This document shows positions 1,563 through 54,100 of a stretch of DNA of 64,000 bases, piece after piece. The position numbers and the translations under genes were made by a program. Origin of the DNA: an uncultured Candidatus Saccharibacteria bacterium (GTDB lineage: Bacteria; Patescibacteriota; Saccharimonadia; Saccharimonadales; JAGQNJ01); assembly GCA_964493895.1 (NCBI GenBank), contig CAZBPY010000002.1:67351-131350 (forward strand), given 5' to 3'. The notes beneath the pieces were generated by a model. That model saw only the letters and a list, made by a program, of their open reading frames with translations, ran no database searches and had not been told where the DNA came from. Numbering within the stretch: position 1 is the stretch's first letter; every line of letters starts with the position of its first letter.

Positions 1563-1582
1563 GTGACTAGACCAAAGGCTTT

Positions 1583-1876
1583 CTAGAGCCCAAAATTACG
1601 TAGATCACCCATCATCGGCTGCATCTTTTCAGCGGCTATTCGTTGACTTTGCGCAACGGCGTCTCTGACAGCATCTTCAATCCAAGCTTCCAGCTGGCCA
1701 ATGTCATCCAGATCGACAAATTCCGGATCGATGTGAACTTTCTTAATTTTTTGACCACCGGTGATTTCCACCTTGACAGCTCCATCGCCGGCCTCGACTG
1801 TGATAACTTGCTTCTGCAGCTCTTTCTCCAGCTTTTTAACTTTCAATAGCATCTTGGCCTGATCAAATTTACTCAT
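1583..1876 (-). CDS. ybaB: YbaB/EbfC-family nucleoid-associated protein
   Basis: 97-aa ORF of typical size and sequence style (VEAGDGAVKVEITGGQKIKKVHIDPEF), immediately upstream of recR. Confidence 0.85.
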   Translation of the reverse strand: MSKFDQAKMLLKVKKLEKELQKQVITVEAGDGAVKVEITGGQKIKKVHIDPEFVDLDDIGQLEAWIEDAVRDAVAQSQRIAAEKMQPMMGDLRNFGL

Positions 1877-1919
1877 TATTAACTCCTTACCTTTACTCTA
1901 ATATTATAGCAGTCAGCGG

Positions 1920-3101
1920 CTAATTCGTCTGGTCAAAAGTCGCTTTAGTGACCGGATTATTGGGCCAAACTACAAAATAGCGAGTCAGATGGTAAATCGG
2001 GACAGTGGCCAGAGCAGCGCAAAAAATGATCATACCAAAACCTCTGGCTAGTGGGTTGCGTGGAAAAACTGTGAACCATTTTTGCAGCAGAACTGCCAGG
2101 CCCATAGCCATCAGGATGTAAATAATCGGCATCAGTAGCGGCAACCACAGCGGTCCGTTGAGGCTGATCATGATACAGCCAAAAATAGCCAGGACTACGA
2201 ATAAGCTTGTCCGTGATAGTCGCCGCTGATAGTAATACAGATAGGCACCAAGAACAGCCAGCATAGTAGTAAATATATCTAAAATTGGCAGTCGACCAAC
2301 GTTAAATACCGGTTCAAGCGGTCCTCGGGCAAACAGATACGCTGGGATAATCAGCAAGCGCTTCAACCACTCCAATGGTTCAAAGACTAGCGGAATGCCC
2401 AAGTAGGTACGGAGTGGCAGACTTCCGAGAACCAGGCTATAAATTAGCGGCCCAATCATTACTAGGAACACTAGGCCCATCAAAACCACCAATGTTTTGG
2501 GCACCCCTGACAATACTGAAGCAAATTTCTTTGGTTTGAGGATGACAAGCAACAGTAGTAGTGGCAAAAATCCAGGGGTATAGACTAGGCTGGCAGCCAC
2601 AGAGGTGGCAAAAACAAAAGCGGTTTTAGTGTGCTTGGCGTGTGGCAGCCAAAGACTTAGAAAAATTAAAGCTGTGACGCTGTAAAGGCTCATGATTACT
2701 GGGGTGACAACGCGGGCGGCTTGCAGGAACCAGCTGGCAGTTACAAACAGCAGGATAGCCACAGCGGTAATGCGTTTGGTGTGGAGCTTGCGCAAGATTA
2801 CATAGAAATAAATTGCGGTGATGAAGCCAACAATACTTGATGCAAATCGTAAAAATACATCGGATATTGGCATGAAACCCAAAAGATAGATTAGAATTTT
2901 TAGCGGTAGATATAATGAATTTTCTAGAATGGCTCGTAGGTTGGCGGCGCTGGCAATGGTCTCAGCTTCAAGGGCACTTAGCTTAAAATTGGTCAGCGAG
3001 CCGATTTGGAAAAATAACAAAAAGGCTAAACTTGACAGCACCAACGCAGTGGTTAAAAGAGCTGACCAATGCTGGGAAAAATAGCTTCGAACCTTACTCA
3101 T
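1920..3101 (-). CDS. polytopic integral membrane protein (about 11 TM), possibly GT-C/ArnT-PMT-like glycosyltransferase
   Basis: 393-aa ORF that is hydrophobic throughout with many predicted TM helices. The functional call is only a fold-level guess. Confidence 0.6.
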   Translation of the reverse strand: MSKVRSYFSQHWSALLTTALVLSSLAFLLFFQIGSLTNFKLSALEAETIASAANLRAILENSLYLPLKILIYLLGFMPISDVFLRFASSIVGFITAIYFYVILRKLHTKRITAVAILLFVTASWFLQAARVVTPVIMSLYSVTALIFLSLWLPHAKHTKTAFVFATSVAASLVYTPGFLPLLLLLVILKPKKFASVLSGVPKTLVVLMGLVFLVMIGPLIYSLVLGSLPLRTYLGIPLVFEPLEWLKRLLIIPAYLFARGPLEPVFNVGRLPILDIFTTMLAVLGAYLYYYQRRLSRTSLFVVLAIFGCIMISLNGPLWLPLLMPIIYILMAMGLAVLLQKWFTVFPRNPLARGFGMIIFCAALATVPIYHLTRYFVVWPNNPVTKATFDQTN

Positions 3102-3120
3102 TGCTTATGCTTAGTATACA

Positions 3121-4491
3121 CTATTCACCCTGGAAAGGCTGTTCGGAGCGGCGCTTGTCCAGGCTGCGAAAACGTTGGCGTTCTTTGTCGAAGAAAAGTT
3201 CAATAGCCCCGACCGGACCGTTACGGTGCTTTTTAATAAACAGGTCAGTTATGCCCTTTCGCTCTGATTCTGGATTGTAGTAGTCTTCACGATAGAGGAA
3301 GGCCACCACGTCAGCATCTTGCTCAATGGAGCCTGATTCACGTAAATCAGCTAGATTTGGAATCTGCGGACTGCGGTTCTCTACTGAGCGGCTTAACTGG
3401 CTAAGGGCAATCAGCGGTACGTTTAATTCTCTGGCAATCCCCTTAAGACCGCGCGATATCTCAGAAATTTCCTGGACGCGATTGCCTTCGCTCTGATAGC
3501 GCCCACCGCCGCTCATCAGCTGAAGATAGTCAACGATAATTAGGCTAATCGGGCGGCGGTGGGCTTCGCGCCGGGCCTTGGTTCGTAAGTCACTAACTGT
3601 GATGCCCGGCGTGTCATCAAAGAACATCTGGGCTTCGGACAACGTCCCCATAGCTTGGCCGATTTTTTCAAAGTCAGTGTCACTAAGGTTGCCAGTACGC
3701 AGTGACCAGGCATCGACTCCGGACTCCATGGCCAGGAGGCGGTCGACTAATTGCTCCTTACTCATTTCCAGACTGAAAAATAATACCGACTCATCAGCTT
3801 TGGTGGTAATATTGTGAGCCAAGTTCAGCGCCAAAGCCGATTTACCCATAGCAGGACGGGCAGCCAGAATAATCAAATCTGATCTCTGCAGTCCGGCCAG
3901 CATATTGTCTAGATCTCTAAAGCCAGTTGGAATGCCGCGGATCTTGTCCTTGTCTTTATGGAGTTCATCAAGTCGTTCAAAACTATCGCTCAGGATTTCT
4001 TCCAACGAAATAACGTTCTGCCCGACATAGCGTTGACTGGTTTGAAAGAGGCTGGACTCGGCCTCCTCAATTAGCTCCTGCAGGTTTTTTGTTTCATCAT
4101 AACCGAGAGTCACGATCTCTTGGCTGGACTTAATTAGTTTCCGCCGCAGAGCCTTTTGCGACACAATCCCGGCATATTGCTCAATGTGAGCTGCCGTCGG
4201 CACGTAGTTTGTTAATTCGCTCAAATATGACGGACCGCCAACCATATCAATAAGGCCATTGGCTTTCAGTTGGTCAGTCAGAGTTAGGACATCAATCGGA
4301 CTGTGCTTATCGTAAAGTTGCTTGATACCTTCAAAAATACGTTGGTGCCGCTCATCATAAAAGTCATCTGCACTTAAAGCATCAGCAATCTTAACAATGG
4401 CATCGCTGTCGATTAGAATGGCGCCAAGCAGACTGGCTTCGGCGTCGGTGTTCTGCGGCGGTATGCGGCTGGGGTGAGTTTTGTCGTCCAT
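3121..4491 (-). CDS. dnaB: replicative DNA helicase DnaB
   Basis: 456-aa ORF with an N-terminal DnaB domain (PPQNTDAEASLLGAIL), Walker A ARPAMGKSA and RecA-like C-terminal motifs. Confidence 0.95.
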   Translation of the reverse strand: MDDKTHPSRIPPQNTDAEASLLGAILIDSDAIVKIADALSADDFYDERHQRIFEGIKQLYDKHSPIDVLTLTDQLKANGLIDMVGGPSYLSELTNYVPTAAHIEQYAGIVSQKALRRKLIKSSQEIVTLGYDETKNLQELIEEAESSLFQTSQRYVGQNVISLEEILSDSFERLDELHKDKDKIRGIPTGFRDLDNMLAGLQRSDLIILAARPAMGKSALALNLAHNITTKADESVLFFSLEMSKEQLVDRLLAMESGVDAWSLRTGNLSDTDFEKIGQAMGTLSEAQMFFDDTPGITVSDLRTKARREAHRRPISLIIVDYLQLMSGGGRYQSEGNRVQEISEISRGLKGIARELNVPLIALSQLSRSVENRSPQIPNLADLRESGSIEQDADVVAFLYREDYYNPESERKGITDLFIKKHRNGPVGAIELFFDKERQRFRSLDKRRSEQPFQGE

Positions 4492-6474: not shown

Positions 6475-6690
6475 GTTTGTCTCTCTAATGTCTCTCGAGT
6501 GTTTGTTAAAGGTACACTTCTAGCCACACCGTACCATGCTTGCGGCCATTAGTAAAGTACAGCCAGCTATAACTGTGGACAACTCTTGCCCAAAAATACA
6601 ATAAAAGTTTCGTCTATCGCAAAACGATACACTCAGTGTGTATAAAGTGTATCAAAAAATTTAAGTCACAAAATCATAGATAGACCGCAA

Positions 6691-6724
6691 ACAAAACAAG
6701 CCCGCCTCTAATGCAGACGGACTT
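6691..6724 (-). terminator. rho-independent terminator downstream of rplL
   Basis: Minus strand AAGTCCGTCT-gcatt-AGAGGCGGGCTT forms a 10-bp stem with 2 G-U pairs, followed by GTTTTGTTTG. Confidence 0.6.
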
Positions 6725-6745
6725 GTGACCAGGTCGATGCGGTTA

Positions 6746-7165
6746 TTAAGCCAACTCGACAGTGGCGCCAGCTTCTTCCAAGGTTTTCTTGGCAGCTTCG
6801 GCGTCTTCCTTCTTAGCCTTTTCTAGCACAGGCTTTGGAGCCCCGTCAACAACGGCTTTAGCCTCACCAAGGCCTAGACCGGTGATGTCTTTAACAGCCT
6901 TAATGACGGCCACCTTCTGAGCTCCGGCGTCCTTTAGAACGACGTCAAACTCAGACTTTTCTTCACCGCCGGCTGCTTCACCGTCACCGCCGGCAGCCGG
7001 AGCTGCGGCTACGGCAACTGCTGGCGCAGCTGCGCTTACTCCCCAGTATTCTTCGAGGAATTTTACAAATTTACTGATTTCTAGAGCCGACATTTTGTCC
7101 AGCTCAGCCACCAATTTTTCGAACTCTTTTGGAGTTTCGACTGTTTTCTTATCTTCTTCAGCCAT
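6746..7165 (-). CDS. rplL: 50S ribosomal protein L7/L12
   Basis: 139-aa ORF with an Ala/Gly hinge and the conserved C-terminal domain ([28 protein letters not shown]). Confidence 0.95.
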
Positions 7166-39903: not shown

Positions 39904-40527
39904 TTATCCCTTAACTCCCTTTACTAAAACGATAGATTTTCGTGGTCCGGGGACGGCGCCGGTAACACCAATTAAGTTTCGCTCGGTGTCGACTAAAGCC
40001 ACTTTAAGATTCTTAACTGTGACGCGCTCATGTCCCAATTGACCAGCCATTTTCTTACCTTTAAAAATTTTCTGCGGGTACATTGATCCGATTGAACCAA
40101 CTTTGCGAGTATTACCTTTGCCACCGTGCGTTTTGCGCTGGCGATGAAAATTGTGCCGCTTGATAGTGCCGGCAAAACCCTTACCCTTGCTGGTACCGAT
40201 GACATCAACGGTGTCACCAACAGAAAAAGAATCGGCCGCTAGTTTGGCGCCGATCTTCATGTCTTCTGAAAGCTCATCAATACGGAATTCTCGAATAATC
40301 TTGGCCTCGGTCTTGGAACCTTTCAGGTGTCCACTCAATGGCTTGACCAAGTGCTTAGCCGTTTCAAAGCCAACTTGTAGGGCGTTATAGCCGTCCTTTT
40401 CATCACTTTTCACCTGGGTAACAGTGTTTGGTGTGGCAGACAGTAAAGTCACAGCCTGAACTGTACCGTCCTCGTTGATGGTACTGGTCATGCCAATTTT
40501 TCTGGTGATTAGAGATTTAACATCCAC
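39904..40527 (-). CDS. rplC: 50S ribosomal protein L3
   Basis: 207-aa ORF with a GTG start and FAGTIKRHNFHRQRKTHG. Confidence 0.95.
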   Translation of the reverse strand: MDVKSLITRKIGMTSTINEDGTVQAVTLLSATPNTVTQVKSDEKDGYNALQVGFETAKHLVKPLSGHLKGSKTEAKIIREFRIDELSEDMKIGAKLAADSFSVGDTVDVIGTSKGKGFAGTIKRHNFHRQRKTHGGKGNTRKVGSIGSMYPQKIFKGKKMAGQLGHERVTVKNLKVALVDTERNLIGVTGAVPGPRKSIVLVKGVKG

Positions 40528-40702: not shown

Positions 40703-40960
40703 CTACAAATTGATAAAGATGCCGATGGGCGCCCAAAAGCCTACTAACATAGCGATAAGCAATACAGCATATTCAATTTTTCGGTCAATTTTGAAATGAT
40801 CATGCCCAGCTAAAAATATACCCAGTATAAAGCCCACCGGAATAGGCACTTGCCATGAATGTCCGTCGCTAACTTTAAGCCAGAGCGACCCCAGCACCAA
40901 GAACAGAACAAGTTTTAGAATATAGCCTTCATCAGAGTTTTTTGATTTTTGTTTAGCCAT
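40703..40960 (-). CDS. small 3-TM membrane protein (P88) between rpsJ and rplC
   Basis: ATG 40960 lies 7 nt after TGcTATAAT (leaderless-type). The protein is hydrophobic (LVLFLVLGSLWL, VGFILGIFLAG, VLLIAMLVGFWAPIGIF). Confidence 0.6.
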   Translation of the reverse strand: MAKQKSKNSDEGYILKLVLFLVLGSLWLKVSDGHSWQVPIPVGFILGIFLAGHDHFKIDRKIEYAVLLIAMLVGFWAPIGIFINL

Positions 40961-40967
40961 TAGAGCC

Positions 40968-40976
40968 ATTATAGCA
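40968..40976 (-). promoter_or_regulatory. extended -10 promoter TGcTATAAT for P88
   Basis: Read on the minus strand, 7 nt before the ATG, with no SD. Confidence 0.45.
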
Positions 40977-41052: not shown

Positions 41053-41403
41053 TTACATCTTAATTTCGGCGTCACAACCTGCCGGCAGCGACAGATTCAT
41101 TAACGAATCAATTGTTTTTGGGGTTGGTTCCAGTACATCAATCAATCGCTTATGAATACGCATCTCAAACTGCTCACGACCCTTTTTGTATTGAGCCGGA
41201 CTTTTGACGACAGTGTAAACTGTGCGCTTTGTCGGCAATGGAATTGGGCCAGCAATCTGAGCCCCATTCCTTAGAGCCGTATCAACAATTTGTTTGGTAG
41301 CTTGATCAATAACTTTGTGATCGTAAGCCTTAAGGCGAATTCGAATTCGCTGACTAGTTGAAGCAGTGGCCTTGGCTGCTTCTGATTTCTTGGCTTCCGC
41401 CAT
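41053..41403 (-). CDS. rpsJ: 30S ribosomal protein S10 (short N-terminal extension)
   Basis: The start is moved to ATG 41403 (AAGGAG SD). S10 core: [26 protein letters not shown]. Confidence 0.95.
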
Positions 41404-41491
41404 TCTATCTCCTTTGTGATGTAACATCTCCCGAGCCGCTATAAAGAACGACAGAGGCGACTTTTAGTCATCACCATTAATTTACTGCCAT

Positions 41492-41585: not shown

Positions 41586-42053
41586 TTATTCAATAATTGG
41601 CAATGACTGACTGACCGATTTCATAGCTGAAATTTTTCTTTCGGTCATCCCCCAAAAGTGTTGTGCATTTCCATCCTCTAGCCAGTCTACGGTTGGTTGA
41701 AGTGTTCCCAAAACAAGAAGACTGGGCTTATATGTATATCGGCCATTCCATCCGCCATAAATAAACCTGGTCGGTATGTCTTCAGCAACTGGAAAATTTT
41801 CAGAAAGGCGGCGATACCTATTGAACAAATCTACCAATGTGCCCCATACAACACTGGCAAACAGCGGAGTTTCATCGGCATTGTCAATAGCTGCTGTTCT
41901 AAATTCTTCCCTAGTTATTACATCCGGTCTAGTTGCACTAAGTAACCCAGTTGTACCATCATATTCAACTTCAAAGCCAAGACGATTAACAAGGCCCTCG
42001 ATATAGCCCTGCTCCTGAGGTGTAACACGTCCGTTAAACTCAATACCCCGCAT
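41586..42053 (-). CDS. hypothetical protein (P161/155 aa) between tuf and rpsJ
   Basis: ATG 42053 has AAGGAA SD, while the ORF-track GTG is at 42071. GC looks lower than in the flanking genes (by eye). Confidence 0.7.
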   Translation of the reverse strand: MRGIEFNGRVTPQEQGYIEGLVNRLGFEVEYDGTTGLLSATRPDVITREEFRTAAIDNADETPLFASVVWGTLVDLFNRYRRLSENFPVAEDIPTRFIYGGWNGRYTYKPSLLVLGTLQPTVDWLEDGNAQHFWGMTERKISAMKSVSQSLPIIE

Positions 42054-42082
42054 TGTCTGTTCCTTGTCCACTAATCACAGAT

Positions 42083-42145: not shown

Positions 42146-43327
42146 TTACTTGGTAATTTTAGTAACCACGCCGGCGCCGACAGTTCGGCCGCCTTCACGA
42201 ATGGCGAAACGTTGACCTTGGTCCATGGCAATAGGCTGGATCAGCTTAACCTTGAAGGTTACGGTATCGCCAGGCATAACCATCTCTTTGTCGGCTGGCA
42301 ACTCAACCTCTCCCGTAACATCGGTAGTTCGGAAGTAGAACTGCGGCTTGTAGCCCTTGAAGAATGGCGTATGTCGTCCGCCTTCGTCTTTGTTTAGAAC
42401 ATAAACTTCGGCGTCGAACTCAGTGTGCGGAGTGATTGAACCGGGCTTGGCGATAACCTGACCACGCTCAATATCATCACGTTCTATACCTCGAAGCAAG
42501 ATACCAGCGTTGTCACCGGCTTGACCTTGGTCAAGATTCTTCTTGAAGGCCTCAATACCAGTCACAGTAGACTTCTGAGTATCCTTCAATCCAACAATTT
42601 CAACTTCGTCGTTAAGCTTAACAACACCTGTCTCGATACGACCGGTAGCAACCGTACCTCGACCCTTGATTGAGAAGACGTCTTCAATAGCCATTAGGAA
42701 AGGCTTGTCCATGTCACGCTTTGGCTCTTCGATGTAGTCATCCATAGCCTTAACCAATTCCATGACGGCATCTTCGTTGGCTGCGTCACCTTCAAGAGCC
42801 TTAGTAGCAGAACCCTTGATAATTGGCGCGTTTTCGTCGAAGTCATTCTTAGCAAGCAATTCGCGGATATCCATTTCAACTAGCTCAACTAGTTCAGGAT
42901 CGGCGAGATCCATCTTGTTCATAAACACGATAATTTTTGGTACACCAACTTGCTTGGCCAATAGAACGTGCTCGCGAGTTTGCGGCATAGGACCATCAGC
43001 TGCTGAAACAACTAGAATTGCCCCGTCAACCTGAGCCGCACCGGTAATCATGTTCTTAACGTAGTCGGCGTGACCGGGCATGTCGACGTGAGCATAGTGA
43101 CGCTTGTCAGACTCATACTCCTGGTGAGAAGTAGCAATGGTGATACCGCGAGCCTTTTCCTCTGGAGCCTTGTCAATCTCGTCATAATTGACTTTTTTGT
43201 TAACTTCGCTTGGCAACTTCTTAGCCAAGACCGATGTGATAGCCGCTGTTAAGGTCGTCTTACCGTGGTCAACGTGACCCATGGTTCCGACGTTTACATG
43301 AGGCTTACTTCTGTCAAAATCTGCCAT
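42146..43327 (-). CDS. tuf: elongation factor Tu
   Basis: The start is moved to ATG 43327 ([29 protein letters not shown]). Confidence 0.97.
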
Positions 43328-43403
43328 TAGTTTATTTCCTTCTTTAAAACTTATTATTCTTTTCGCACACTCGAGCAACGCCCCCTATGCGAGATACTTA
43401 AGT

Positions 43404-43431: not shown

Positions 43432-43436
43432 AGAGG

Positions 43437-43676
43437 TTAAGATTGCCAATCTTCACCTATTGCCTCGCGCCCTAAACTTTTAAGAATCTCGGCTAAACTT
43501 CGATCAGCTAATTCAAAACGCTCATCCAGAATTTGATACACAGGATCATTCATTAATACTGAACCGGATTTATCACTGCGTAGCACATATGATGCCAATT
43601 CGGCACTGGCTTGGCGAAACTGACCAACAGTTTCGGTTCGTGATTCTTCTAGAGAAAGGTAGGGAGTTTGTGTCAT
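43437..43676 (-). CDS. small acidic helical protein (P79)
   Basis: 79-aa ORF starting 20 nt after the P94 stop. I recognise no family. Confidence 0.55.
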   Translation of the reverse strand: MTQTPYLSLEESRTETVGQFRQASAELASYVLRSDKSGSVLMNDPVYQILDERFELADRSLAEILKSLGREAIGEDWQS

Positions 43677-43696: not shown

Positions 43697-43981
43697 TTAT
43701 ATTCCTTCAATCTGGTCGCCAATATTGCCGTCTTCTAGGTGTGGAGGAGGAGTCAGATTAGCCGCCTCCCCGCTGCCACGGACGAATACCTCATCTCCTT
43801 CTAGATGACTGCCTATCCGATCAAAGGTTTCTCTTAGAGCAGTATTTCCTACTCCGGCCAAAAATTGGCCGCGGCTTTGCCTTGCTCTTTCAATAAGTTG
43901 TTGCCAGACACTACGGCGCGGCAAGGGTTGGGCATCATCGTCCCAATCAATCACTTCATCTGACGATATTCTCTCTACCAT
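43697..43981 (-). CDS. small acidic protein (P94), LEGGE family
   Basis: Starts 2 nt after the fusA stop. It shares DW..RRS.W, LEGDEV.VR (LEG at residues 60-62) and PP motifs with P106. Confidence 0.65.
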   Translation of the reverse strand: MVERISSDEVIDWDDDAQPLPRRSVWQQLIERARQSRGQFLAGVGNTALRETFDRIGSHLEGDEVFVRGSGEAANLTPPPHLEDGNIGDQIEGI

Positions 43982-43983
43982 AA

Positions 43984-46074
43984 TTATCCTTTGGCGTTTT
44001 TAGCTACAATTGCTTCTGCCACATTTGGCGGCACGTCGGCGTAGTGGTCAAGTTCCATGCTGGAGCTGGCTCGACCGGCCGTCATACTGCGAAGATTGGT
44101 GGTGTAACCGAACATCTCGCCTAATGGAACAAAAGCCGTGATCTCTTTAATACCGGCTTGGAGGTCCTCCATAGATTCAATCCGACCACGCTTGGAGTTC
44201 AGATCACCAATGACATCACCCATGAATTCTTCAGGGGTCACAACCACAACTTTCATGATCGGCTCTAAAAGAACCGGGTTGGCTTTCTTAACCCCTTCTT
44301 GAAGGGCCATCGAGCCAGCCACCTTAAAGGCCATCTCGCTGGAGTCAACATCGTGGTAACTTCCGTCATACAGCTCGGCCTTTATATCCACCACGGGATA
44401 GCCAGCCAAGACACCATTAGCCATAGCTTCTTCGATACCTTGTTGGACAGGTTTGATGTATTCCTGAGGAACCACGCCGCCTTTAATCGAGTTGATGAAC
44501 TCGAATCCTTTGCCAGCTTCGTTCTGGCTAAGTCGCAGCCAGACGTCACCGTACTGACCGCGTCCACCAGATTGACGAATGAATTTACCTTGGACTTCAA
44601 CACCGTCTTTGCGGATAGTTTCGCGGTAAGCAACTTGTGGTTGACCGATGTTGGCTTCGACATTGAACTCTCGCTTCATGCGGTCGACCAGAATTTCCAG
44701 GTGCAGCTCACCCATACCTTTAATGATGGTCTGGGCTGTCTCATCATCAACATTTACCTGGAAGGTCGGATCTTCCTCAGCCAATCTTTGCAAAGCCAAA
44801 CTCATCTTTTCTTGGTCGGCTTTGGTTTTGGGCTCGATAGCAATCGACACCGGCGGTTCAGGAAAAGTAATATTTTCAAGCACTACCGGATTGGCCTGAT
44901 CGCACAGGGTATTACCGGTCGTTGTGCCTTTTAGACCAACAATGGCGGCAATGTCGCCGGCACCGATTGAGTCAATGTCCTCACGCTTGTCAGCTTGCAT
45001 GCGGACTACCCGGCCAACTCGCTCTTTTTCGCCGGTTACCGAGTTGTAAACATACGACCCGGCTTTCAAAACACCCGAGTAAACTCGAACGAAGCACAAT
45101 TTACCAACAAATGGGTCGGTGGCAATCTTAAAAGCAATAGCTGCCATTGGCTCTGATTCGTCAGGTTTGCGCTCAACCTCCTCGCCAGTTTTAGGATTCT
45201 CTCCCCACACAGAGCCACGATCCAACGGGCTTGGCAGGAAATCGTTGACCAAGTCGAGTACTTTCTCAACAATGACACCCCGGCCATCACCGCCAGTCAC
45301 CGGGAAAAAATTGCCAGTCTGAGTCGCCGTTCGGATGGCCTGACGAATTTCATCTTCGCTCAGACCGTCTTCACCAACTTCGAAGTATTTCTCCAGCATG
45401 GCCTCGTCTTCAGCCACGGCGTTCTCAATTAGCAGGCTGCGGTATTTTTTAGCTTTGTCCAGCATATCTTCGGGAATTTCCCCTTCTACCAGGTTCTTAT
45501 CGGTAAATTCTTTGTAGGTATATGCCTTCATGGTGATCAGGTCGACCACTCCGTTAACCGACTGCTCGAAGCCAATTGGCAAATGAACCGGAAAAGCGTG
45601 TTTGCTAAGGCGAGCATGAATCGTGTCAAGTGATTTGTAAAAATCACCGCCGGTTTGGTTAATCTTGTTGATAAAGCAAATTCGCGGCACGCCGTACTTG
45701 TCAGCCTGGCGCCAGACAGTTTCAGATTGCGATTCAACACCCATCTTACCGTCAAAAACCGTCACAGCGCCATCAAGAACCCTCAAAGATCGTTCTACCT
45801 CAGCTGTAAAGTCAATATGGCCAGGCGTGTCGATAATATTAATCTTGTGATCTTTCCAATAACAAGTCACCGCAGCTGACGTGATTGTAATACCACGCTC
45901 TCGTTCTTGTGCCATCCAATCGGTCGTAGTTTCACCTTCATGGACCGCACCAATTTTATGCTTTAAACCAGTCCGATACAGAATGCCTTCAGTCGTGGTT
46001 GTCTTACCAGCATCAATATGAGCAATAATGCCGATGTTACGATAGTTTTTTAAATCAATTTTCTTATCTGCCAT
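43984..46074 (-). CDS. fusA: elongation factor G
   Basis: 696-aa ORF with [12 protein letters not shown] and DTPGHIDF. Confidence 0.97.
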
Positions 46075-46081
46075 TTATACC

Positions 46082-46465
46082 CTATTCTTCGCTTTGCGTT
46101 CGTTGCGTCAGACCCCACCGAGCTAAGTTCCGGCCTATCAAGCTAGTGCTGCAATAACTCTTAACAGTAAATTTACCAATATTCAATTGCTCTGGTCCCT
46201 CACAATAGTCGGCGCCCAACTGAGTTTCTAAGCCTATAAGCACTTCCAAATCATCAGCCTCTGCAAACTTGCGCTCTGCGAAAGCTTTCATACTTCTAGC
46301 ATAATCTGAATCTCCGACAAAAAGGGGATTCTCACCGGCTTGCATTCCGTATTCGGCCGTACGTTGAGCACCACTACGATAGATGTCGACAATTTTTTCT
46401 TGTGGCTTTATATAATTCCGAAGAAAGCGAGGGCACTCCGAACAGTTTTCAAAAGTCCTGGCCAT
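46082..46465 (-). CDS. hypothetical Cys-motif protein (P127) inserted between rpsG and fusA
   Basis: 127-aa ORF lying 3 nt after the rpsG stop and 7 nt before the fusA ATG. It has the motifs CSECP, ENPLFVG, CEGP and C, colinear with P126. Confidence 0.7.
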   Translation of the reverse strand: MARTFENCSECPRFLRNYIKPQEKIVDIYRSGAQRTAEYGMQAGENPLFVGDSDYARSMKAFAERKFAEADDLEVLIGLETQLGADYCEGPEQLNIGKFTVKSYCSTSLIGRNLARWGLTQRTQSEE

Positions 46466-46468
46466 AGT

Positions 46469-46945
46469 TTACCTCGCAAAGTGGGCGAAAGCTCGGTTGG
46501 CTTCGGCCATCTTATGTGTATCTTCGCGCTTCTTAACAGAAGTCCCGGTGTTATTGTAAGCATCGACCAATTCAGCAGCAATTCGATCTTCAGTTGACAT
46601 ACCAGACTTGGCTCGTACAGCTTGGACAAACCACAGGATTGTCAGATGAGACTGTCGTTGACCTTTAACCTCAAATGGAATCTGATAGTTAGCACCACCT
46701 ACTCGTCGTGACCGAGTCTCAACACTGGGTTGAATATTCTTAAAAGCTTGCTCAAAAACCTCCAGAGGATTGTCAACTTTCAAACGATCTGCCGCCTTTT
46801 GCATGCCGTTATATACTAATCGCTCGGCAACCTGTTTTTTGCCGTCATGCATAATGCGGTTTATGACACGCTGAACCATCACGCTATTGTAGACGCGATC
46901 GGCCGGAATGTCTCGAACTAGTGATTTGGTCTTCTTCCTGGGCAT
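46469..46945 (-). CDS. rpsG: 30S ribosomal protein S7
   Basis: 158-aa ORF beginning [21 protein letters not shown]. Confidence 0.96.
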   Translation of the reverse strand: MPRKKTKSLVRDIPADRVYNSVMVQRVINRIMHDGKKQVAERLVYNGMQKAADRLKVDNPLEVFEQAFKNIQPSVETRSRRVGGANYQIPFEVKGQRQSHLTILWFVQAVRAKSGMSTEDRIAAELVDAYNNTGTSVKKREDTHKMAEANRAFAHFAR

Positions 46946-47358
46946 TATTTGCCAGCCTTTTTGGTGCCGTACTTACTTCGGCCCTGTTTACGGTCTTGAA
47001 CACCTTGTAGGTCAAGCGCACCACGGACTATGTGGTAGCGTACACCCGGGAGGTCCTTTACGCGTCCACCACGGATTAGGACTACGGCGTGTTCCTGTAG
47101 GTTATGGCCTTCACCACCGATGTAAGCCCAAACTTCGTGACCATTTTGCAGTCGGACACGAGCCACCTTACGAAGCGCCGAGTTCGGCTTTTTAGGTGTT
47201 TTGGTAGTCACTTTAACGCAAACCCCGCGCTTGAATGGTGATGGTTTTTCATAGTTAGTCGTCGTCAGGTTGTTAACCACGCGGTGCAGTGCCGGAGACT
47301 TCGATTTCTTAGTCACCTTGGCACGCGGTTTTCGAACTAATTGATTGATTGTTGGCAT
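46945..47358 (-). CDS. rpsL: 30S ribosomal protein S12
   Basis: 137-aa ORF with [12 protein letters not shown] and [11 protein letters not shown]. Confidence 0.97.
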
Positions 47359-47373
47359 CAGCGTATCATCCTA

Positions 47374-50300
47374 TCAGTTTTCACCTTCTTCGTCAACAGA
47401 GGTCGCATCAGCATCGTCCTTGGCGTAAGCATTGTAGCCTGTGCCGACAGGGATCATTCGACCCAAGATAACGTTCTCTTTCAGGCCGCGCAAATGATCG
47501 ACTTTGCCACTGGTAGCAGCAGCAATTAGCACTCGTGTTGTGTCCTGGAAGCTAGCCGCCGATAAGAATGACTCTGTCGACAAACTAGCCTTGGTAATTC
47601 CAAGCAGTAACTGGCTGTACTGAATTAGTTTCTTGCCAGCCCTGGCCAACTCTTCGTTGGTATCGAGCACATCAACTTTACTGACAATGTCACCGGTTAC
47701 GAACTCACTATCACCGGCATCCTCGATCTGAACTCGAGAGAACATCTGTCGAACGATCACTTCCAGGTGCTTGTCGGCAATGTGCTGACCTTGGCTGGCA
47801 AAGATACGCAGAACTTCGTTCATGATGTAACGTTGGGTGGCTTCAACACCTTGCAGGCGCATCAGCTCGTGCAGGTTGATCGAACCGTTGGTCAAACGTT
47901 GACCAGCTACAACTTTGTCGCCATCCTTGATGGTCAGTTGTTTGTAGCCAGGAATTTCATAGCGCTCGATTTCCTGCTTAGCCGGTGAAATGGTTATAGC
48001 CGATTTGTTGACCGAAGCCTTACCGGCTATCGGCGCAATCAACGGGTTAGAGTCGTTCTCGGCACTAGCTAACACATCACCGATGGCCACTTCAGTGCCG
48101 GATTCAATCCGCGGTGTGCGGCTTTCCAGTTTCAGCTCGACCTTTTGCTTGTCATCGGTTGTCACTTGAACTATGTACTGATCTCCCTCTTCCCAAACAT
48201 TGGCCGTACCAGCGACTTCTGACAAATAGGCTTGTCCTTTTGGAGCTCGAACTTCAAAGATTTCTTCAACACGCGGCAGACCTTGAGTAATGTCATCAGC
48301 CGCCGCCGAGCCGCCGCCGTGATAAGACCGCAGGGTCAGCTGGGTTCCAGGCTCACCAATACTCTGTGCCGCCACGACACCTATAGGATAGTGCGAGCTA
48401 ACCACTTCGCCGGTGGCTGGATCAATGCCGTAAGATTTGCGCGATACACCGCGCGGGCTGCTGCAGCTTAGCACCGACATGATCTTTACACCGTCAACTT
48501 TAGTGTCCTTATCGATAGCATTAGCAATTGCTCGGGTTATGAGCTCGCCCTTCTTAACATGGCCTGGCACATTTTCAGCAGCATAGCGACCTTCAAGTCG
48601 GAAACCATAACTGACACCTATAAACTCGGCGTCAGCTCGGTTCATAGTAAAGCCAGGGTCTGGGGCTTCCTCATTATCCGTAAAGACATCCTGAGAAACA
48701 TCAACCAGACGACGAGTCAGGTAGCCAGAATCAGCGGTTTTTAGAGCTGTATCGATCATGGTCTTTCTGGTACCGCGAGTTGAGGTGAAATACTCCAATG
48801 GACTTAGACCGCGTTTGTAGCCAGACTTAATCGGCAGCTCAATGGCCCGACCGGTAGTATCCATGGTTACGCCCAAGATACCGACGGCGTTTTTAACTTG
48901 GCCGATGTTACCGCGGGCTCCAGACACAACGGCTGTAGACATAGAACTGTCTTCCTGATCGAATTGCAAACTCAGGACCTTCTTAACTTCGGCATCGGCT
49001 TCCATCCAAGCATCAACCGTTAGGCGGTAACGCTCATCCTCAGTAATGAAGCCTTGGTCATATTGTTCACTAATTTCGGTGACTTTCTTTTCACCTTCAT
49101 CAAGAATTTGCTGCAATCCCTTAATGTCGCTGAAGTCGTCCATACCCAGGCTCAGACCAGAGAAAGTGGCATACTCAAAACCTAAGTCTTTCAAATCATC
49201 GGCAATTTGGGCGGTCACGTCTGGACCATATTGCTCGTATATTTCCGACATCACGTCTGAAAGTTGCTTCTTGGTCATGGTCTGGTCTTTGAACTTAAAG
49301 TCGTCGGGCATTATTTCATTGAACAGCAGGCGGCCCAGCGTTGTCTCGCGGACTGCTCCGCGAAAAGGTAGCTTGACTCGACTTTGCAGAATTATTTCAC
49401 CAGCGTCATAGGCCATAACAGCTTCGTCCAACGAGGCAAAAGCCTCGGCTTCACCGGCTACTCCCGGGCGTTCGTAGGTTAAGTAGTAACAGCCTAAAAC
49501 AATATCTTGCTCAATATGCAAAATGGGTGAACCGTCGGCCGGTTTTAGCAAGTTCTTATTGCTAGCCATAATCTCGCGAGCTTCTTTCTGTGAAGCCACC
49601 GACAACGGCAAGTGTACAGCCATCTGGTCACCATCGAAGTCAGCATTGAAACCTTTACAAACCAATGGGTGCAGTTGAATCGCCTTACCTTCGATTAGCT
49701 TTGGCTGGAAGGCCTGAATCGACAGACGGTGCAGTGACGGTGCACGATTCAACAGAACATACTTGCCCTTGATGACTTCGTCCAGGGCATCCCAAACCGG
49801 AGTCTCACCCAGCTCGATCATGCGGGTAGCCGATCGAATATTGTGGGCAAATTCGTTCTCAATTAGATGACCGATCACGAATGGCTTGAATAGTTCCAAA
49901 GCCATCATCTTTGGCAGGCCGCATTCGTCAATCTTAAGTTCCGGCCCGGCTACAATCACCGAACGGCCAGAGTAGTCAACTCTTTTTCCAAGCAAGTTCT
50001 GGCGGAAACGACCCTGCTTACCTTTCAGCATGTCGGACAGCGACTTTAGTCGACGCCGTTGACCGCTGGCTGCCACGGCTCGGCCACTCCGAGCGTTACC
50101 GTTGTCGATAAGGGCGTCAACGGCTTCTTGCAGCATACGCTGTTCATTACGGCAAATAACCTCAGGAGCATTCAAATCAATCAACTTCTTCAACCGATTA
50201 TTGCGGTTAATAACCCTCCTATAAAGATCATTTAGATCGGAAGTGGCAAATCGACCACCGGTCAGTTGTACCATTGGCCTTAGATCCGGAGGTATTACTG

Positions 50301-51195
50301 GCAAAATAGTCACGCACATAGAATTTGGTTTGATCCCAGCCCGCTCCATAGACTCTAGCAAGCGCAGGCGCTTCATCAATTTCTTCTTCCGCTGGCCTTT
50401 GGCCTCTTCGGCTTCATCAGACAATTGTTTGATCAATTTAGCCAAGTCGATTTCGTCTAGCAGCTCTTTAATGGCTTCGCCACCCATGCCGACTTCGACG
50501 ATATCTTGAAGTTCGTCAGGCAAGTTGTTGTAGTCTCCCTCTGAAATCAGACCATACTTGACCAGCATATCCAGCTGATTCATTAGTTCAAGATGAGTAG
50601 TTTCCAGCTCTTCCAACTCTTTAGTTCGAGCTGCTGCCAAAGCTTTGACATCGGCGTCTTCTTTCTTGCCTTCAGCTTCGTAGCGAGCATTAATGGCTTC
50701 AACAGCTGCCTTGTACTCGGCCTCTTTATCCTCGCGGTATTTGTCGCGAGCCTTTTCATCAACAGATTTAAAAATGTATGCTGCAAAGTAAGCCACCCGT
50801 TCCAGGTTTTTAACTGTCATATTAAGCAGCAAGCCGATAGCTGATGGCGTACCGCGTAAGAACCAAATGTGAGCCACTGGGCTGGCCAATTTAATATGAC
50901 CCATTCGTTCACGGCGGACAATTGAGCGAGTAACGATTTCGCCATTCTTATCGACAGCGGCTTCTCTTGACCGAACACCCTTGTACTTAGCGTCGTGAGG
51001 ATTAATATCTTTGACCGGACCAAAAATGCGCTCACAAAATAGGCCATCACGTTCTGGTTTTTGAGTTCGATAGTTAATTGTTTCCGGCTTTAAAACTTCA
51101 CCGTGTGACCATTCCAAAATATCGGCAGCGCTGGCTACAGCCAACCGAACCGCATCAAAATCAGCAATGTCTGGACCGCTTGAATATCGTCGCAT
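47374..51195 (-). CDS. rpoC: DNA-directed RNA polymerase subunit beta-prime (both zinc sites lack most Cys ligands)
   Basis: The start is moved to ATG 51195 (AGGAGG SD, 1 nt after the rpoB stop). The catalytic motif [12 protein letters not shown] is present. Confidence 0.96.
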
Positions 51196-51196
51196 C

Positions 51197-54100
51197 TTAA
51201 GCCTCCTCTCCTTCACTCACATTGGTATCTTCTTCTCCTGAACTGGAAGTCACACTGGCCATGTCGCCTTCAATGTCCATGATATCGAACTCATCAACAC
51301 CGTCTTCTTTAGTCATATCTACTTCGGAGACTTCTGGCTGCGGCACATCAACTTCGGCCTGGTGTTTAGCTTCGTCCTTGATGTTTTCAGCCAAAACTGC
51401 TTCGGCGTCGACAACTTTTTCGCTGGTGATCAGATCAACCTTCAGACCCAGACCTTGCAATTCCTTGACCAGCACATTAAATGACTCAGGAACCTTTGGT
51501 CCAACAATATCTGTACCTTTTATGATTGATTCATAGGCTTTGGATCGTCCGTACACATCGTCAGATTTAATGGTTAGCATTTCTTGCAGAGTATGAGCCG
51601 CGCCATAAGCTTCCAGAGCCCAAACCTCCATTTCACCAAACCTTTGACCACCGTTTTGAGCCTTGCCGCCCAATGGCTGTTGGGTAACCATAGTGTATGG
51701 ACCAGTTGACCTGGCATGAATCTTGTCAACAATCATGTGGTTAAGTTTGATCATGTACATAGAACCAACAGTTGTAGTTTCCGAGAATGGCTCACCGGTT
51801 CGGCCATCAAATAATTGTTGCTTGCCGTTTTCCGGATAGCCGGCTTGCTTTAAGAGTTCGCGGATCTTGTCAATTGGCACGCCATTAAACGGCGGTGTGA
51901 CAACTTTCATTCCGAGGGCCCGAGCGGCCATACCCAAGTGGGTTTCAAACAGCTGGCCAATGTTCATACGGCTTGGCACGCCCAGTGGGTTAAGGACAAT
52001 GTCCACCGGTGTTCCGTCTTCCATATACGGCATGTCTTCAACCGGTAGGACTCGGGCAATAACACCCTTGTTACCATGACGGCCACCTAATTTATCTCCA
52101 ACCGCAATCTTGCGCATCTGCGCCACAAAGACCTGAACCTGCATTAGCACGCCAGCCTTCAATTCGTGGCCGTTCTCGCGAGAGAAGACTTTAACACCGA
52201 CAACTTTGCCGTGTTTACCGTTACTCATGCGCTGGGAGGTGTCACGAACATCCTTGGCCTTTTCACCAAAAATGGCCCGAAGCAAGCGCTCTTCCGAACT
52301 CAGTTCCTGCTCGCCCTTTGGCGTAATCTTTCCAACCAAGATGTCGCCGGGGTGAACTTCAGCACCTATTCGGACAATTCCATCATCATCCAGGTGCCGC
52401 AGCGCATCTTCGGAAACATTAGGAATGTCGCGAGTGACAATTTCCGGACCTAATTTGGTCTCACGCACTTCAGTCATGTAATCCACAATGTGAATCGATG
52501 TCAGGCTGTCATCTTCAACCAGTTTGCGCGAAATAATTACAGCATCCTCGAAGTTATAACCTTTCCACGGCATGAAAGCTACAATCAAATCCTTACCAAG
52601 TGCCAGTTCGCCACCCTGGATTGACATACCTTCAATGATTGGCTGGCCTTTCTTAACCTTATCGCCAGCGCTAACCACAACCTTTTGATTAATACAGCTG
52701 CCTTCGTTACTGCGGACAAAGTGCTGGGGTTGATAAGTTACTTTACCGGCTTTCTTGTACTTTATAACAACCTGTTCAGCAGTAGCCGATACCACCTCGC
52801 CATCTTCTTCAGCTACGGTCAGCTGGCCAGTATTTTGTGCCACTGTAGACTCCAGACCAGTACCGACAATTGGCGAATCCGGCTGAATTAACGGCACCGC
52901 TTGGCGCTGCTGGTTGCTTCCCATCAAACTTCGATAAACATAGTTCTTTTCAATGAACGGAATCAAACCGGCACTGGAGCCAATAATTTGCCTGAGGCTG
53001 GCGTCCATATGAGTCACTTCATTAGCGTCAGTTTCACCTGATTTCAGACGAATGCGAGCCGAGACACGATCATCAATAAAGTAACCATCATTGCCAAACT
53101 TTTCATCGGCGCTGGCAATTACGGCTTTTTCCTCTTCAGCGGCATCAAGATATTCGACTTTATCAGTGACTTTAGCCTTTACGGGCCAGGTAATTTGGCT
53201 TTTTACAGCCGCTAGTTTCTTAGCATCAGCTGCTGTGATAGTCTTGCCGGCTTTAACGATAACTTTACCCTTTTCATCTTCCAGATCAACTGCGGCAATG
53301 TGTCCGGAAGCATCTTTGGCTGTAACTGCATTAATAACTTTGCGGTAAGGCGTTTCCATAAAACCGTAGTCATTAATCCGGGCATAGGCAGCCATGTTCA
53401 ACACCAAACCGATGTTGGCGCCTTCAGGCGTTTCCACAGCACAGATTCGGCCATAGTGAGTGGCGTGAGCATCGCGAACTTCAAAACCGGCTCGTTCGCG
53501 GGATAATCCGCCGGGTCCCATTGAACTTAAACGGCGTTTGTGAGCCAGCTCGGACAGAGGGTTAATCTGATCCATAAACTGAGACAATTGGGAGCTGGCA
53601 AAGAACTCGCGAACAGCCGCCACGATTGGCCGAGCATTGACCAACTGTCCAGGGGTAACTGTCTCAATTTCCGACATCGACATGCGGTCCTTGGTGTTAC
53701 GCTCCATGCGTAGTAAGCCGATGCGGAACTGGCGCTGGACCAACTCCCCAACTAACTTGACTCGCCGATTTGCTAGCGAGTCAATGTCATCTGCTGGTTC
53801 CTGAGTGTTATTAAGGCGAATAATTTCAGCAATGATGGCAATCAAATCTTCCAGTCGCATAACCCGGTTTTCGGCCGTATTGGGCACATCCAGGTCAAGG
53901 CGCTTATTAATCTTATAGCGACCGACCCTGGAAAAATCGAAACGTTTGAAGTTATAAAACATATTTTCTAGCAGTGACCGGGCGTTGTCGACAGTGGCCA
54001 AATCACCCGGGCGCAGACGGCGGTAGACCTCAATTAAGGCATCGTTGGTGCCTTTGGCCGGATCCTTGTCCAGGGTTGCATCAATATAGTTAGTTTCTCC

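Follow-up and report, generated by a model that had tools for sequence, protein, structure and literature searches.

The window analysed here is a stretch of 64,000 nt from an uncultured Candidatus Saccharibacteria bacterium. Its genes for ribosomal protein S7 (rpsG, 46469..46945) and EF-G (fusA, 43984..46074) both lie on the minus strand, and the gap of 394 nt between them is filled by an open reading frame on the same strand, P127 (46082..46465), which runs over 127 codons from ATG to TAG. Three nucleotides (46466-46468) separate the rpsG stop codon (46469-46471) from the ATG of P127, and seven (46075-46081) separate its TAG (46082-46084) from the fusA ATG (46072-46074), so that the position given in an earlier note on this DNA is confirmed. 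The peptide quoted there was likewise correct, with Cys residues at positions 8, 11, 88 and 105.

The product is acidic (pI 5.13), and its four Cys residues form the pattern CxxC-x76-C-x16-C. The N-terminal pair belongs to a CxxCP motif, C8-S-E-C11 followed by P12, with the Cys codons at 46433..46444 of the minus strand (TGT at 46442-46444, TGC at 46433-46435). The C-terminal pair, C-x16-C, reaches from C88 (in C-E-G-P-E-Q-L) to C105 and is encoded at 46151..46204 of the same strand (TGT at 46202-46204, TGC at 46151-46153).

P127 is a real gene and not a chance ORF. Among 20000 mononucleotide shuffles and 20000 first-order Markov simulations of the 394-nt gap, not one produced an ORF of 384 nt or longer. 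In the reading frame of P127 the codon-usage log-likelihood was +0.150 per codon (z = 4.3 relative to shuffles), whereas the other five frames scored between -0.27 and -1.01. The in-frame score is comparable to that of P126 (+0.108), another small Cys protein in the window that has real homologues, and lies about 1.2 SD under the mean of long genes.

Operon context and probable translational coupling

The transcription unit begins with rpsL (ribosomal protein S12, 46945..47358, minus strand), which has a promoter-like site just upstream (47396-47368). The final sense codons of rpsG form a Shine-Dalgarno-like GAGG (46472..46475, minus strand) 6 nt ahead of the ATG of P127. A second such site, AGGG (46080..46083, minus strand), overlaps the P127 stop codon and lies 5 nt before the fusA ATG, a layout typical of translational coupling. 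The GAGG-type arrangement at the end of rpsG is also present in relatives that carry ORFs in this junction, and their fusA Shine-Dalgarno sites fall inside, or just past, the junction ORF.

Neither terminator-like sites nor promoter-like sites on the gene strand were found within P127 or directly beside it. The nearest ones lie in the 5' part of rpsG and upstream of rpsL and tuf. As the earlier note had proposed, P127 is probably co-expressed with S7 and EF-G, given the shared strand, the Shine-Dalgarno sites and the lack of an intervening terminator or promoter. P127 would be transcribed together with rpsL-rpsG-fusA and translated by coupling, with a ribosome-binding site in the last S7 codons, while the 3' end of P127 would carry that of fusA.

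Two other kinds of element were considered at the locus. An RNA element was rejected, as Rfam searches at E up to 1 gave no match there and only two chance snoRNA-like matches elsewhere in the 6-kb region. A mobile-element signature was rejected as well, with no meaningful direct or inverted repeats around P127 and no more than a mild dip in GC content (0.42-0.44 versus 0.46-0.51).

Homology and structure searches

P127 retrieved only itself, both in a word-indexed search of 5.8 billion clusters and in an exhaustive phmmer search of 1.84 billion representative proteins. Back-translated scans of metagenome contigs and viral contigs returned nothing, nor did tblastn against phage genomes, and a lookup of encoding contigs gave no record. 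There was no match in Pfam-A or NCBIfam at E up to 1 (FusB models included) and none among PDB sequences at E up to 10, and searches of PADLOC and PHROGs gave nothing or E values of 0.1 or worse. The product of P127 is thus an ORFan with no detectable homologue. Models made with AlphaFold2 were unusable, with a pLDDT of 41.3 for P127 alone and 39.5 with a seven-sequence alignment (A4).

The S7 sequence of the window was used as the query for fetching relatives. Its closest match was 84% identical among GTDB species genomes and 81% identical in metagenomes, and EF-G was 82-87% identical to that of relatives (tblastn). A full-text literature search found nothing on Saccharibacteria concerning an interrupted rpsG-fusA junction or fast-evolving small proteins.

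The rpsG-fusA junction in relatives

The rpsL-rpsG-fusA-tuf cluster is among the most conserved gene arrangements in bacteria. We compared the junction in those relatives, 22 in all, that have an S7 identity of 69% or more and in which both rpsG and fusA were seen. The gap was empty in nine of them (2-144 nt), with S7 and EF-G intact, and occupied in the other 13 (250-863 nt); eight of these 13 occupied gaps measured 349-400 nt, a narrow range that includes the 394 nt of the window. Occupancy was patchy on the S7 tree. The earlier statement that rpsL-rpsG-fusA is normally uninterrupted therefore holds for the loci examined outside Saccharibacteria (L019-L024, gap 38-52 nt) but not within this clade.

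In eight lineages (L119, L081, L084, L006, L086, L088/L164/L165, L008/L163 and L095) the gap is filled by a same-strand ORF with four or five Cys residues, 105-125 aa in length and acidic. ORFs in the junctions of relatives begin 3-13 nt past the rpsG stop; they end 0-28 nt short of fusA or run into it. The eight-lineage ORFs resemble P127 in coupling layout, size, acidity, Cys number and the occurrence of Cys-Pro, but their Cys spacings are unlike those of P127, and they share no significant similarity with it or across lineages. Five further occupied junctions (L001, L085, L089, L094 and L009) hold ORFs without Cys. All occupants are acidic (pI 4.3-6.8).

We provisionally grouped the Cys-bearing junction ORFs by position and strand (start no more than 13 nt past the rpsG stop, end at or just before fusA) and by makeup (105-127 aa, acidic, at least four Cys in N-terminal and C-terminal groups, Cys-Pro). 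P127 shows all of these features, its Cys-Pro being C11-P12. Absence from relatives, which the earlier note had regarded as counting against its proposal, is thus found at the level of detectable homology and is only half true of position and Cys pattern.

The same gene cluster was inspected at rpsL-rpsG, rpsG-fusA and fusA-tuf in the window and in relatives, and at tuf-rpsJ and rpsJ-rplC in the window. In this Saccharibacteria clade the junctions examined repeatedly hold small, co-directional and tightly coupled genes. Junctions other than rpsG-fusA contain plainly unrelated genes (DUF520, chorismate mutase and GIY-YIG).

Cysteine pattern and sequence links

Cys is rare in the proteome (0.38%). 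In P127 it makes up 3.1% of residues, and in shadow ORFs 2.7%. Taken by themselves, the Cys residues of P127 could therefore be a sign of youth, since random, non-adapted sequence has a similar content. In a protein under selection, four of them in so Cys-poor a proteome point instead to a metal site. With counterparts that also have four or five Cys and a bias towards Cys-Pro, metal binding through the four Cys of P127 is plausible.

Of the 39 Cys residues of the junction ORFs, 13 are followed by Pro, which accounts for 4.6% of residues (binomial p = 1e-8, in a test devised after seeing the data). The background is 2 of 57 in the genes of the window and 17 of 297 in shadow ORFs. Clustering of Cys positions in the junction ORFs was not significant (Fisher p = 0.05). 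The CxxC spacing is not kept in the positional counterparts, where the first pair reads C-x4-C, C-x6-C or C-x7-C or is reduced to a single N-terminal Cys.

A MAFFT alignment places C11, C88 and Q93 of P127 in columns that are invariant with the junction proteins of relatives, within the shared motifs CP.F[VL]RN and C..P.[ED]Q[ILM]. The C88 column holds the last Cys of the relatives' proteins, and the third and fourth Cys of P127 may not sit at positions that match those of the relatives' ORFs. All-against-all phmmer gave E > 0.4 for P127 versus every junction ORF of relatives, and neither tblastn nor all-against-all BLASTP between P127 and these ORFs was significant. With HMMs built from five subsets of relatives, 151 to 3444 of 5000 shuffles (3% to 69%) scored at least as high as P127, and the L088-type HMM reported no match to it.

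Evolutionary rate of the junction ORFs

Close pairs of junction ORFs have dN/dS of 0.17-0.28, which indicates purifying selection; these values, like the conservation of Cys, were measured on the ORFs of relatives, since the search for a genome close to that of the window reached no more than 84% S7 identity. Orthologues within a lineage always lie directly after rpsG and keep their four Cys residues. Nevertheless, the junction ORFs in close pairs change 9-44 times faster than S7, with amino-acid identities of 60-88% at S7 identities of 96-99% (for example, dN 0.31 versus 0.007). Orthologues in the rpsG-fusA junction thus become unrecognisable while S7 stays >95% identical.

Such a rate would account for the lack of detectable homologues of P127. 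As it predicts that similarity is lost at this divergence, missing homology does not discriminate between a young gene and a shared family. Between species with an S7 difference of 16% or more, only position, size and the cysteine framework would be expected to survive.

Comparison with P126

P126 (20552..20932, minus strand) is a conserved small Cys protein of 126 aa with five homologues at 54-70% identity. The family (P0002-P0007, uncharacterised Saccharibacteria proteins) has a member in the same genome as P127, is of near-equal size and is acidic, with CxxCP and a C-terminal Cys pair as in P127. P126 has C15-x2-C18-P19 and C91-x15-C107 where P127 has C8-x2-C11-P12 and C88-x16-C105, and P127 thus shares with the family a CxxCP near the N-terminus and two C-terminal Cys set 16-17 residues apart. 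Unlike P127, the family is recognisably conserved, has invariant blocks and occupies another locus.

P127 could be a diverged paralogue of this family, a copy of which landed in the str operon. Short motifs follow in the same order in both proteins (CxxCP, LFVG, AE.D.EV, CxGP[ED] and [FY]C), and their local alignment has z = 3.4. The P126-family HMM aligns residues 52-107 of P126 with 47-105 of P127, both C-terminal Cys included, and gives P127 3.4 bits, a score that 84 of 10000 shuffles reached (empirical p ~0.01). Besides these two, no credible small ORF in the window has four or more Cys. On the other side, BLASTP of P127 against P126 gave E = 13, hhalign of the family profile against P127 gave a probability of 0.9% (E = 0.06), and P127 is without the family invariants RGSSFRGRLI, ANVQIAN and C51. 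The homologues of P126 lie elsewhere in their genomes, close to genes for a TPR protein and a DNA polymerase III delta'-like protein, and never at rpsG-fusA. The earlier description of P127 as colinear with P126 therefore survives as far as the order of motifs and a weak HMM score are concerned, but not as stated. These two features hint at homology without proving it, and we regard a P126-family origin of P127 as rather unlikely; it would be compatible with the explanation that we prefer.

Interpretation of P127

With moderate confidence we favour the reading that P127 is an accessory protein encoded in the str operon which evolves fast, is probably stapled by a metal and is translated by coupling. 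In this genome it would occupy a junction that is filled repeatedly across this Saccharibacteria clade, most commonly by an acidic protein of ~105-127 aa with four Cys, often Cys-Pro, in N-terminal and C-terminal groups. Common ancestry of P127 with the relatives' junction ORFs is part of this reading; we infer it in spite of there being no statistically detectable sequence homology. The four Cys would most likely coordinate a structural metal (zinc) and thereby staple a small protein that is mostly helical. P127 probably has an accessory or adaptive role, profiting from how strongly and constitutively the str operon is expressed, rather than being a component of the translation machinery. An accessory role is indicated more than that of a conserved translation factor because the junction of relatives is either empty or holds four-cysteine genes that have diverged beyond recognition. 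Both this role and metal binding are our inferences from the pattern across the clade.

Alternatively, P127 might be a young lineage-specific gene, formed de novo or recently captured and unrelated to the ORFs of relatives, in which case the junction would be a site that tolerates insertions and the Cys would reflect unadapted sequence. This would agree with the self-match as the only result of the large protein searches, with the empty searches of metagenome and viral collections, with the lack of significant similarity to any junction ORF and with a Cys fraction equal to that of random shadow ORFs. The somewhat low codon score, the patchy occupancy and the diverse junction contents of relatives, which include Cys-less ORFs and known domains, are also in line with a recent origin. 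However, the similar narrow size of most occupied junctions, the Cys-Pro bias common to the occupants and the short motifs that align speak against this, and loss of detectable similarity is already predicted by the measured rate. We consider a young gene improbable on this evidence.

The earlier note had also proposed a translation-associated factor, and here P127 would be a metal- or redox-dependent protein acting on the ribosome, S7 or EF-G and placed by function with its neighbours. The tight coupling between rpsG and fusA, the recurrence of the position in several relatives and the four Cys (CxxC included) in a Cys-poor proteome would fit, and a C4 zinc-finger protein that binds EF-G provides a precedent (PMC3352095). 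Yet close relatives with intact S7 and EF-G have an empty junction in nine of 22 cases, and the occupants evolve at rates unlike those of proteins that partner with highly conserved ones. Their acidity is unlike that of rRNA-binding proteins, CxxC is not kept among them, and P127 has no Pfam or NCBIfam match, also with FusB models. Since neighbouring junctions hold unrelated genes, position does not imply function here. The proposal is thus unsupported, and we think such a factor quite doubtful.

Still less probable is a bolder version, in which the junction encodes one ancient, hyper-evolving, zinc-stapled family that includes P127 and acts on EF-G or the ribosome. If it were true, the family might shield translation from inhibitors that the actinobacterial hosts of the epibionts produce or tune it to zinc or redox state, its speed of change would reflect an arms race, and its members would be accessory factors of a new class that target translation and escape homology searches. 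Finally, a spacer without coding function, or an ORF that matters through being translated and not through its product (for example by tuning S7/EF-G coupling), would suit a gene known from sequence alone, with no homologue and with ends that coincide with the ribosome-binding signals of its neighbours, but is extremely unlikely in view of the shuffles and simulations, the frame-specific codon usage, the empty Rfam result for the region and the dN/dS of the counterparts, which reflects selection on the protein.

If the favoured reading of a fast-evolving accessory protein is right, part of the ORFan load of the candidate phyla radiation would consist of genes that keep their position but evolve fast, as opposed to annotation noise. 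Highly expressed core operons would then be sites at which reduced genomes maintain or generate small adaptive proteins. In annotation work, synteny together with a cysteine framework can recover relationships missed by HMM searches, and a position between S7 and EF-G should not be taken as evidence of a role in translation.

Comparison with known systems

FusB is ~213 aa long and is not known to be encoded inside the str operon. Proteins of the FusB type confer fusidic-acid resistance as C4 treble-clef zinc-finger proteins that bind EF-G, with sequence determinants in domain IV, act on the ribosome and release EF-G from it (PMC3352095). The zinc motif, CXXC-X23-CX5C, sits in a C-terminal alpha/beta domain that follows a four-helix bundle (PMC3352095). 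FusB/FusC-type proteins are small and soluble with four Cys, like P127, and a link between P127 and EF-G could be proposed by analogy. The Cys pattern of P127, spread over 127 aa, differs from this motif, and the Pfam, NCBIfam and PDB sequence searches were empty, so that P127 does not belong to the FusB type by sequence or Cys motif.

The zinc-ribbon (C+) ribosomal proteins L31, L33, L36, S14 and S18 are small, have four Cys that hold a structural zinc, are encoded among ribosomal protein genes and have Cys-less (C-) paralogues, which offers a parallel to the Cys-bearing and Cys-less junction ORFs. They are, however, basic proteins with two CxxC knuckles that evolve slowly and occur almost universally, while P127 is an acidic ORFan with one CxxC and two distant Cys. 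P127 was therefore rejected as a C+ ribosomal protein. A thioredoxin-fold CxxC oxidoreductase was rejected too, as there was no Pfam match and the first-pair spacing of the counterparts ranges from 2 to 7 or is replaced by a single Cys.

Another accessory gene lodged in the otherwise conserved str cluster is ybxF (L7Ae-like) of Bacillus subtilis, which adjoins rpsL on its upstream side. In contrast to P127, ybxF belongs to a known conserved RNA-binding family and is not fast-evolving.

Position and coding potential of P127

The open reading frame P127 (46082–46465, 127 codons, ATG at 46463–46465 and TAG at 46082–46084) lies in a string of minus-strand genes, behind rpoC (47374–51216), rpsL (46945–47358) and rpsG, the gene for S7 (46469–46945, stop at 46469–46471), and ahead of fusA, the gene for EF-G (43984–46074, ATG at 46072–46074). 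The spacing is 3 nt from the S7 stop to the P127 ATG and 7 nt from the P127 TAG to the fusA ATG, exactly the placement described in the earlier note. On the minus strand the rpsG/P127 junction reads GCG AGG TAA ACT ATG, so the last S7 sense codons supply a GAGG 6 nt before the P127 start. The P127/fusA junction reads GAA GAA TAG GGTATAA ATG, and here an AGGG overlaps the P127 stop 5 nt ahead of fusA. No terminator-like site and no gene-strand promoter-like site was found inside or immediately flanking P127; the closest promoter-like sites of that strand lie within rpsG, in its 5′ part, and upstream of both rpsL and tuf. P127 would be translated by coupling within the str-operon mRNA.

It is very probable that P127 is a genuine, translated gene. 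The 394-nt gap yielded no ORF of 384 nt or longer in 20,000 shuffles or in 20,000 Markov-1 simulations. Log-likelihoods of codon usage, with 35 long ORFs of the window as the training set, were +0.150 per codon in the frame of P127 (z = 4.3 vs. shuffles) and −0.27 to −1.01 in the five other frames; for comparison, the long genes have a mean of +0.279 (SD 0.106), and P126, a small Cys protein with real homologs, scores +0.108. The region has no Rfam match, no flanking repeats and only a mild dip in GC, and P127 is already called as an unnamed protein in the NCBI annotation of the source contig.

The rpsG-fusA junction in relatives

By its S7 the window belongs to Saccharibacteria. The best S7 matches are only 84% (GTDB species genomes) and 81% (metagenomes) identical, and there is therefore no close relative for comparison. 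Outside Saccharibacteria the rpsG-fusA gap is 38–52 nt. The earlier note took this junction to be normally uninterrupted, which fits these non-Saccharibacteria loci but does not hold within Saccharibacteria. Among Saccharibacteria loci with S7 at least 69% identical, nine have an empty junction with a gap of 2–144 nt (L003, L004, L007, L082, L083, L087, L090, L091, and L092), and in 13 the junction is occupied, with gaps of 250–863 nt; eight of the 13 (L081, L084, L006, L086, L088, L008, L089, and L094) have 349–400 nt, as compared to 394 nt in the window. In distant Saccharibacteria (S7 about 60%) insertions reach 5.6 kb, and L016 has a DUF520/YajQ gene in the gap (6593–7087). In seven loci with S7 of about 60–65% (L011, L012, L017, L018, L099, L100, and L101) rpsG and fusA are 3.1–5.6 kb apart, the intervals, downstream of position 6478 or 5478, holding several genes, some on the opposite strand. 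No fusA was found within 2–6 kb of rpsG in L010, L013, and L097.

Occupied gaps are filled by same-strand ORFs. Eight lineages (L119, L081, L084, L006, L086, L088, L008, and L095) have ORFs of 105–125 aa with 4–5 Cys residues, split into an N-terminal and a C-terminal group; in five lineages (L001, L002, L085, L089, and L094) the ORFs have at most one Cys each, and of the two ORFs in L009, one has a single Cys and the other lacks Cys. All junction proteins for which a pI was computed are acidic (4.3–6.8; P127 5.13). The ORFs start 3–13 nt past the S7 stop, behind a GAGG-type site formed by the last S7 codons, and end 0–28 nt ahead of fusA or overlap it. Their recurrent C-terminal Gly-Asn/Gly is what the Shine-Dalgarno sequence of fusA (GGGAA, AGGGG, AGGAA) encodes in the ORF frame, as in L119, L084, L086, L088, and L085 (…RGNN, …GIRGH, …KGNTGF, …GNNGE), where the stop is directly next to the fusA ATG or overlaps with it. 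In the poorly resolved S7 tree, Cys-bearing, Cys-less and empty junctions are interleaved.

Evolutionary rate of the junction proteins

A profile search seeded with P127 and the eight Cys ORFs (alignment A3) returned orthologs within lineages: P0008, P0009, and P0012 (L088 type), P0011 and P0013 (L008 type), and P0010 (L086). All orthologs looked up directly follow rpsG, in L163 between rpsG and fusA. By the Nei-Gojobori method, L008 and L163 have 60% junction identity with S7 at 98.7% (dN 0.31 vs. 0.007 for S7; dS saturated). The corresponding values are 88% and 99.4% for L088 and L165 (dN 0.06 vs. 0.003; junction dN/dS 0.28), 68% and 96.2% for L088 and L164 (0.195 vs. 0.022; dN/dS 0.21), and 70% and 96.2% for L164 and L165 (0.189 vs. 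0.022; dN/dS 0.17). The junction proteins thus change in amino acid sequence about 9–44 times faster than S7, and the estimates indicate that the junction ORFs are selected protein-coding genes. Four Cys residues are preserved in each lineage; the fifth of L008 is not. At this rate, detectable similarity is expected to be lost between lineages whose S7 differs by at least 16%, and the searches agree: phmmer and BLASTP comparisons of all junction ORFs with one another gave nothing significant across lineages, HMMs from relatives failed to single out P127 (3% to 69% of shuffles score equally), and the L088-type HMM did not match it at all.

Cysteines and shared motifs

Of the 39 Cys residues in nine independent Cys ORFs (P127 and the eight lineages), 13 are followed by Pro, whose overall frequency is 4.6% (binomial p = 1e-8; the test was chosen after inspecting the sequences, and the margin is large). 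The background is 2/57 in the likely genes of the window and 17/297 in out-of-frame shadow ORFs. In MAFFT alignments with the ortholog sets, C11, C88, and Q93 of P127 fall in invariant columns. Two motifs are shared: CP.F[VL]RN, seen as CPRFLRN (P127), CPFVRN (L088 type) and CPYFVQR (L008 type), and C..P.[ED]Q[ILM], seen as CEGPEQL, CSLPIDQI, and CPVEQM.

Across likely genes of the window that encode 150 aa or more, Cys makes up 0.38% (57 of 15138 residues); below 200 aa, P126 and P127 are the only credible ORFs with at least four. Given this rarity, the presence of four Cys residues in a small protein under selection suggests a metal site. As caveats, random sequence also comes close to 3% Cys (2.7% in shadow ORFs), and positional clustering of the Cys residues was not significant (Fisher p = 0.05).

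Other interrupted junctions of the cluster

Further junctions of the window are interrupted on the same strand. The fusA-tuf gap holds ORFs of 94 aa (43697–43981) and 79 aa (43437–43676), both acidic and with gene-like in-frame codon usage (+0.110 and +0.198 per codon); neither has a Pfam or NCBIfam match or a tblastn match in 160 related loci (L001–L160). A 161-aa ORF (41586–42071) lies between tuf (listed as 42146–43378) and rpsJ (41053–41427), and an 88-aa hydrophobic ORF (40703–40969) between rpsJ and rplC (39904–40527), so the S10 operon is interrupted at its start too; neither ORF has a Pfam match. The listed tuf start is a TTG, 17 codons upstream of what is probably the true start, an ATG near 43327; a promoter-like site lies at 43432–43404.

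Relatives have, between fusA and tuf, a type II chorismate mutase (L084, 7972–8250), a GIY-YIG nuclease domain protein (L006, 9078–9377), membrane proteins and unknowns; between rpsL and rpsG they have further small ORFs. One of these, a 78-aa ORF with four Cys residues (L005, 5763–5999; MAVCPVTNKEC…), fills the gap, has its first Cys in a Cys-Pro, and is of the same flavor at another junction. The junctions of the str cluster act as permissive sites that are repeatedly filled, and position in this cluster does not imply function.

Interpretation of P127

P127 matched only itself in a 5.8-billion-cluster search and in an exhaustive phmmer search of 1.84 billion representatives, and had no match in metagenome contigs, viral contigs, phage genomes, Pfam, NCBIfam, PADLOC, PHROGs or PDB sequences. 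AlphaFold2 models had a low pLDDT, 41.3 for P127 by itself and 39.5 when seven aligned sequences were supplied; they hint at a largely helical protein and were given no weight.

We lean towards reading P127 as a real, coupling-translated str-operon gene whose product would be the local member of the fast-evolving junction proteins with four Cys, diverged beyond recognition, probably stabilized by bound metal and with a putative accessory or adaptive role rather than a core function in translation. With self-matches only on one side and the shared Cys motifs on the other, it is possible but rather unlikely that P127 is a young gene, de novo or captured, unrelated to the other junction ORFs. The earlier note proposed a metal- or redox-dependent translation factor co-expressed with S7 and EF-G. 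Co-expression and metal binding are plausible; the translation role is unsupported and we find it doubtful, given that some relatives have nothing at this junction, that the occupants evolve fast and are acidic, and that neighboring junctions hold unrelated genes. Its closest functional precedent would be FusB, an EF-G-binding C4 zinc-finger protein (CXXC-X23-CX5C; PMC3352095), but P127 does not fit the FusB family by sequence or by motif. A non-coding region or a translation-only spacer is highly improbable beside the codon usage of P127. The finding is of moderate interest as a case of hyper-evolving genes that keep a conserved place within a core operon, in a candidate-phyla-radiation bacterium.

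Comparison with P126

P126 (20552–20932, minus strand) is a real conserved gene with five homologs (54–70% identity), whose family invariants are C15, C18-P19, RGSSFRGRLI, C51, ANVQIAN, C91, and F-C107. The two proteins had been called colinear. The P126-family HMM does pair P126 52–107 with P127 47–105, including both C-terminal Cys residues, but with 3.4 bits, a score reached by 84 of 10,000 P127 shuffles; the local alignment has z = 3.4. P127 lacks the RGSSFRGRLI and ANVQIAN blocks and C51, BLASTP gave E = 13, and hhalign of the P126 family against P127 gave a probability of 0.9% (E = 0.06). Judged from sequence, the resemblance is real for short motifs and does not establish homology. That P127 is a distant P126 paralog, which would be compatible with the favored reading, seems unlikely. 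P126 homologs neighbor a TPR gene and a DNA polymerase III delta′-like gene, never rpsG-fusA. Synteny of the family genes (L161, 5001–5378; L162, 1258–1635; and P126 itself) is loose, the intervening genes varying between genomes.
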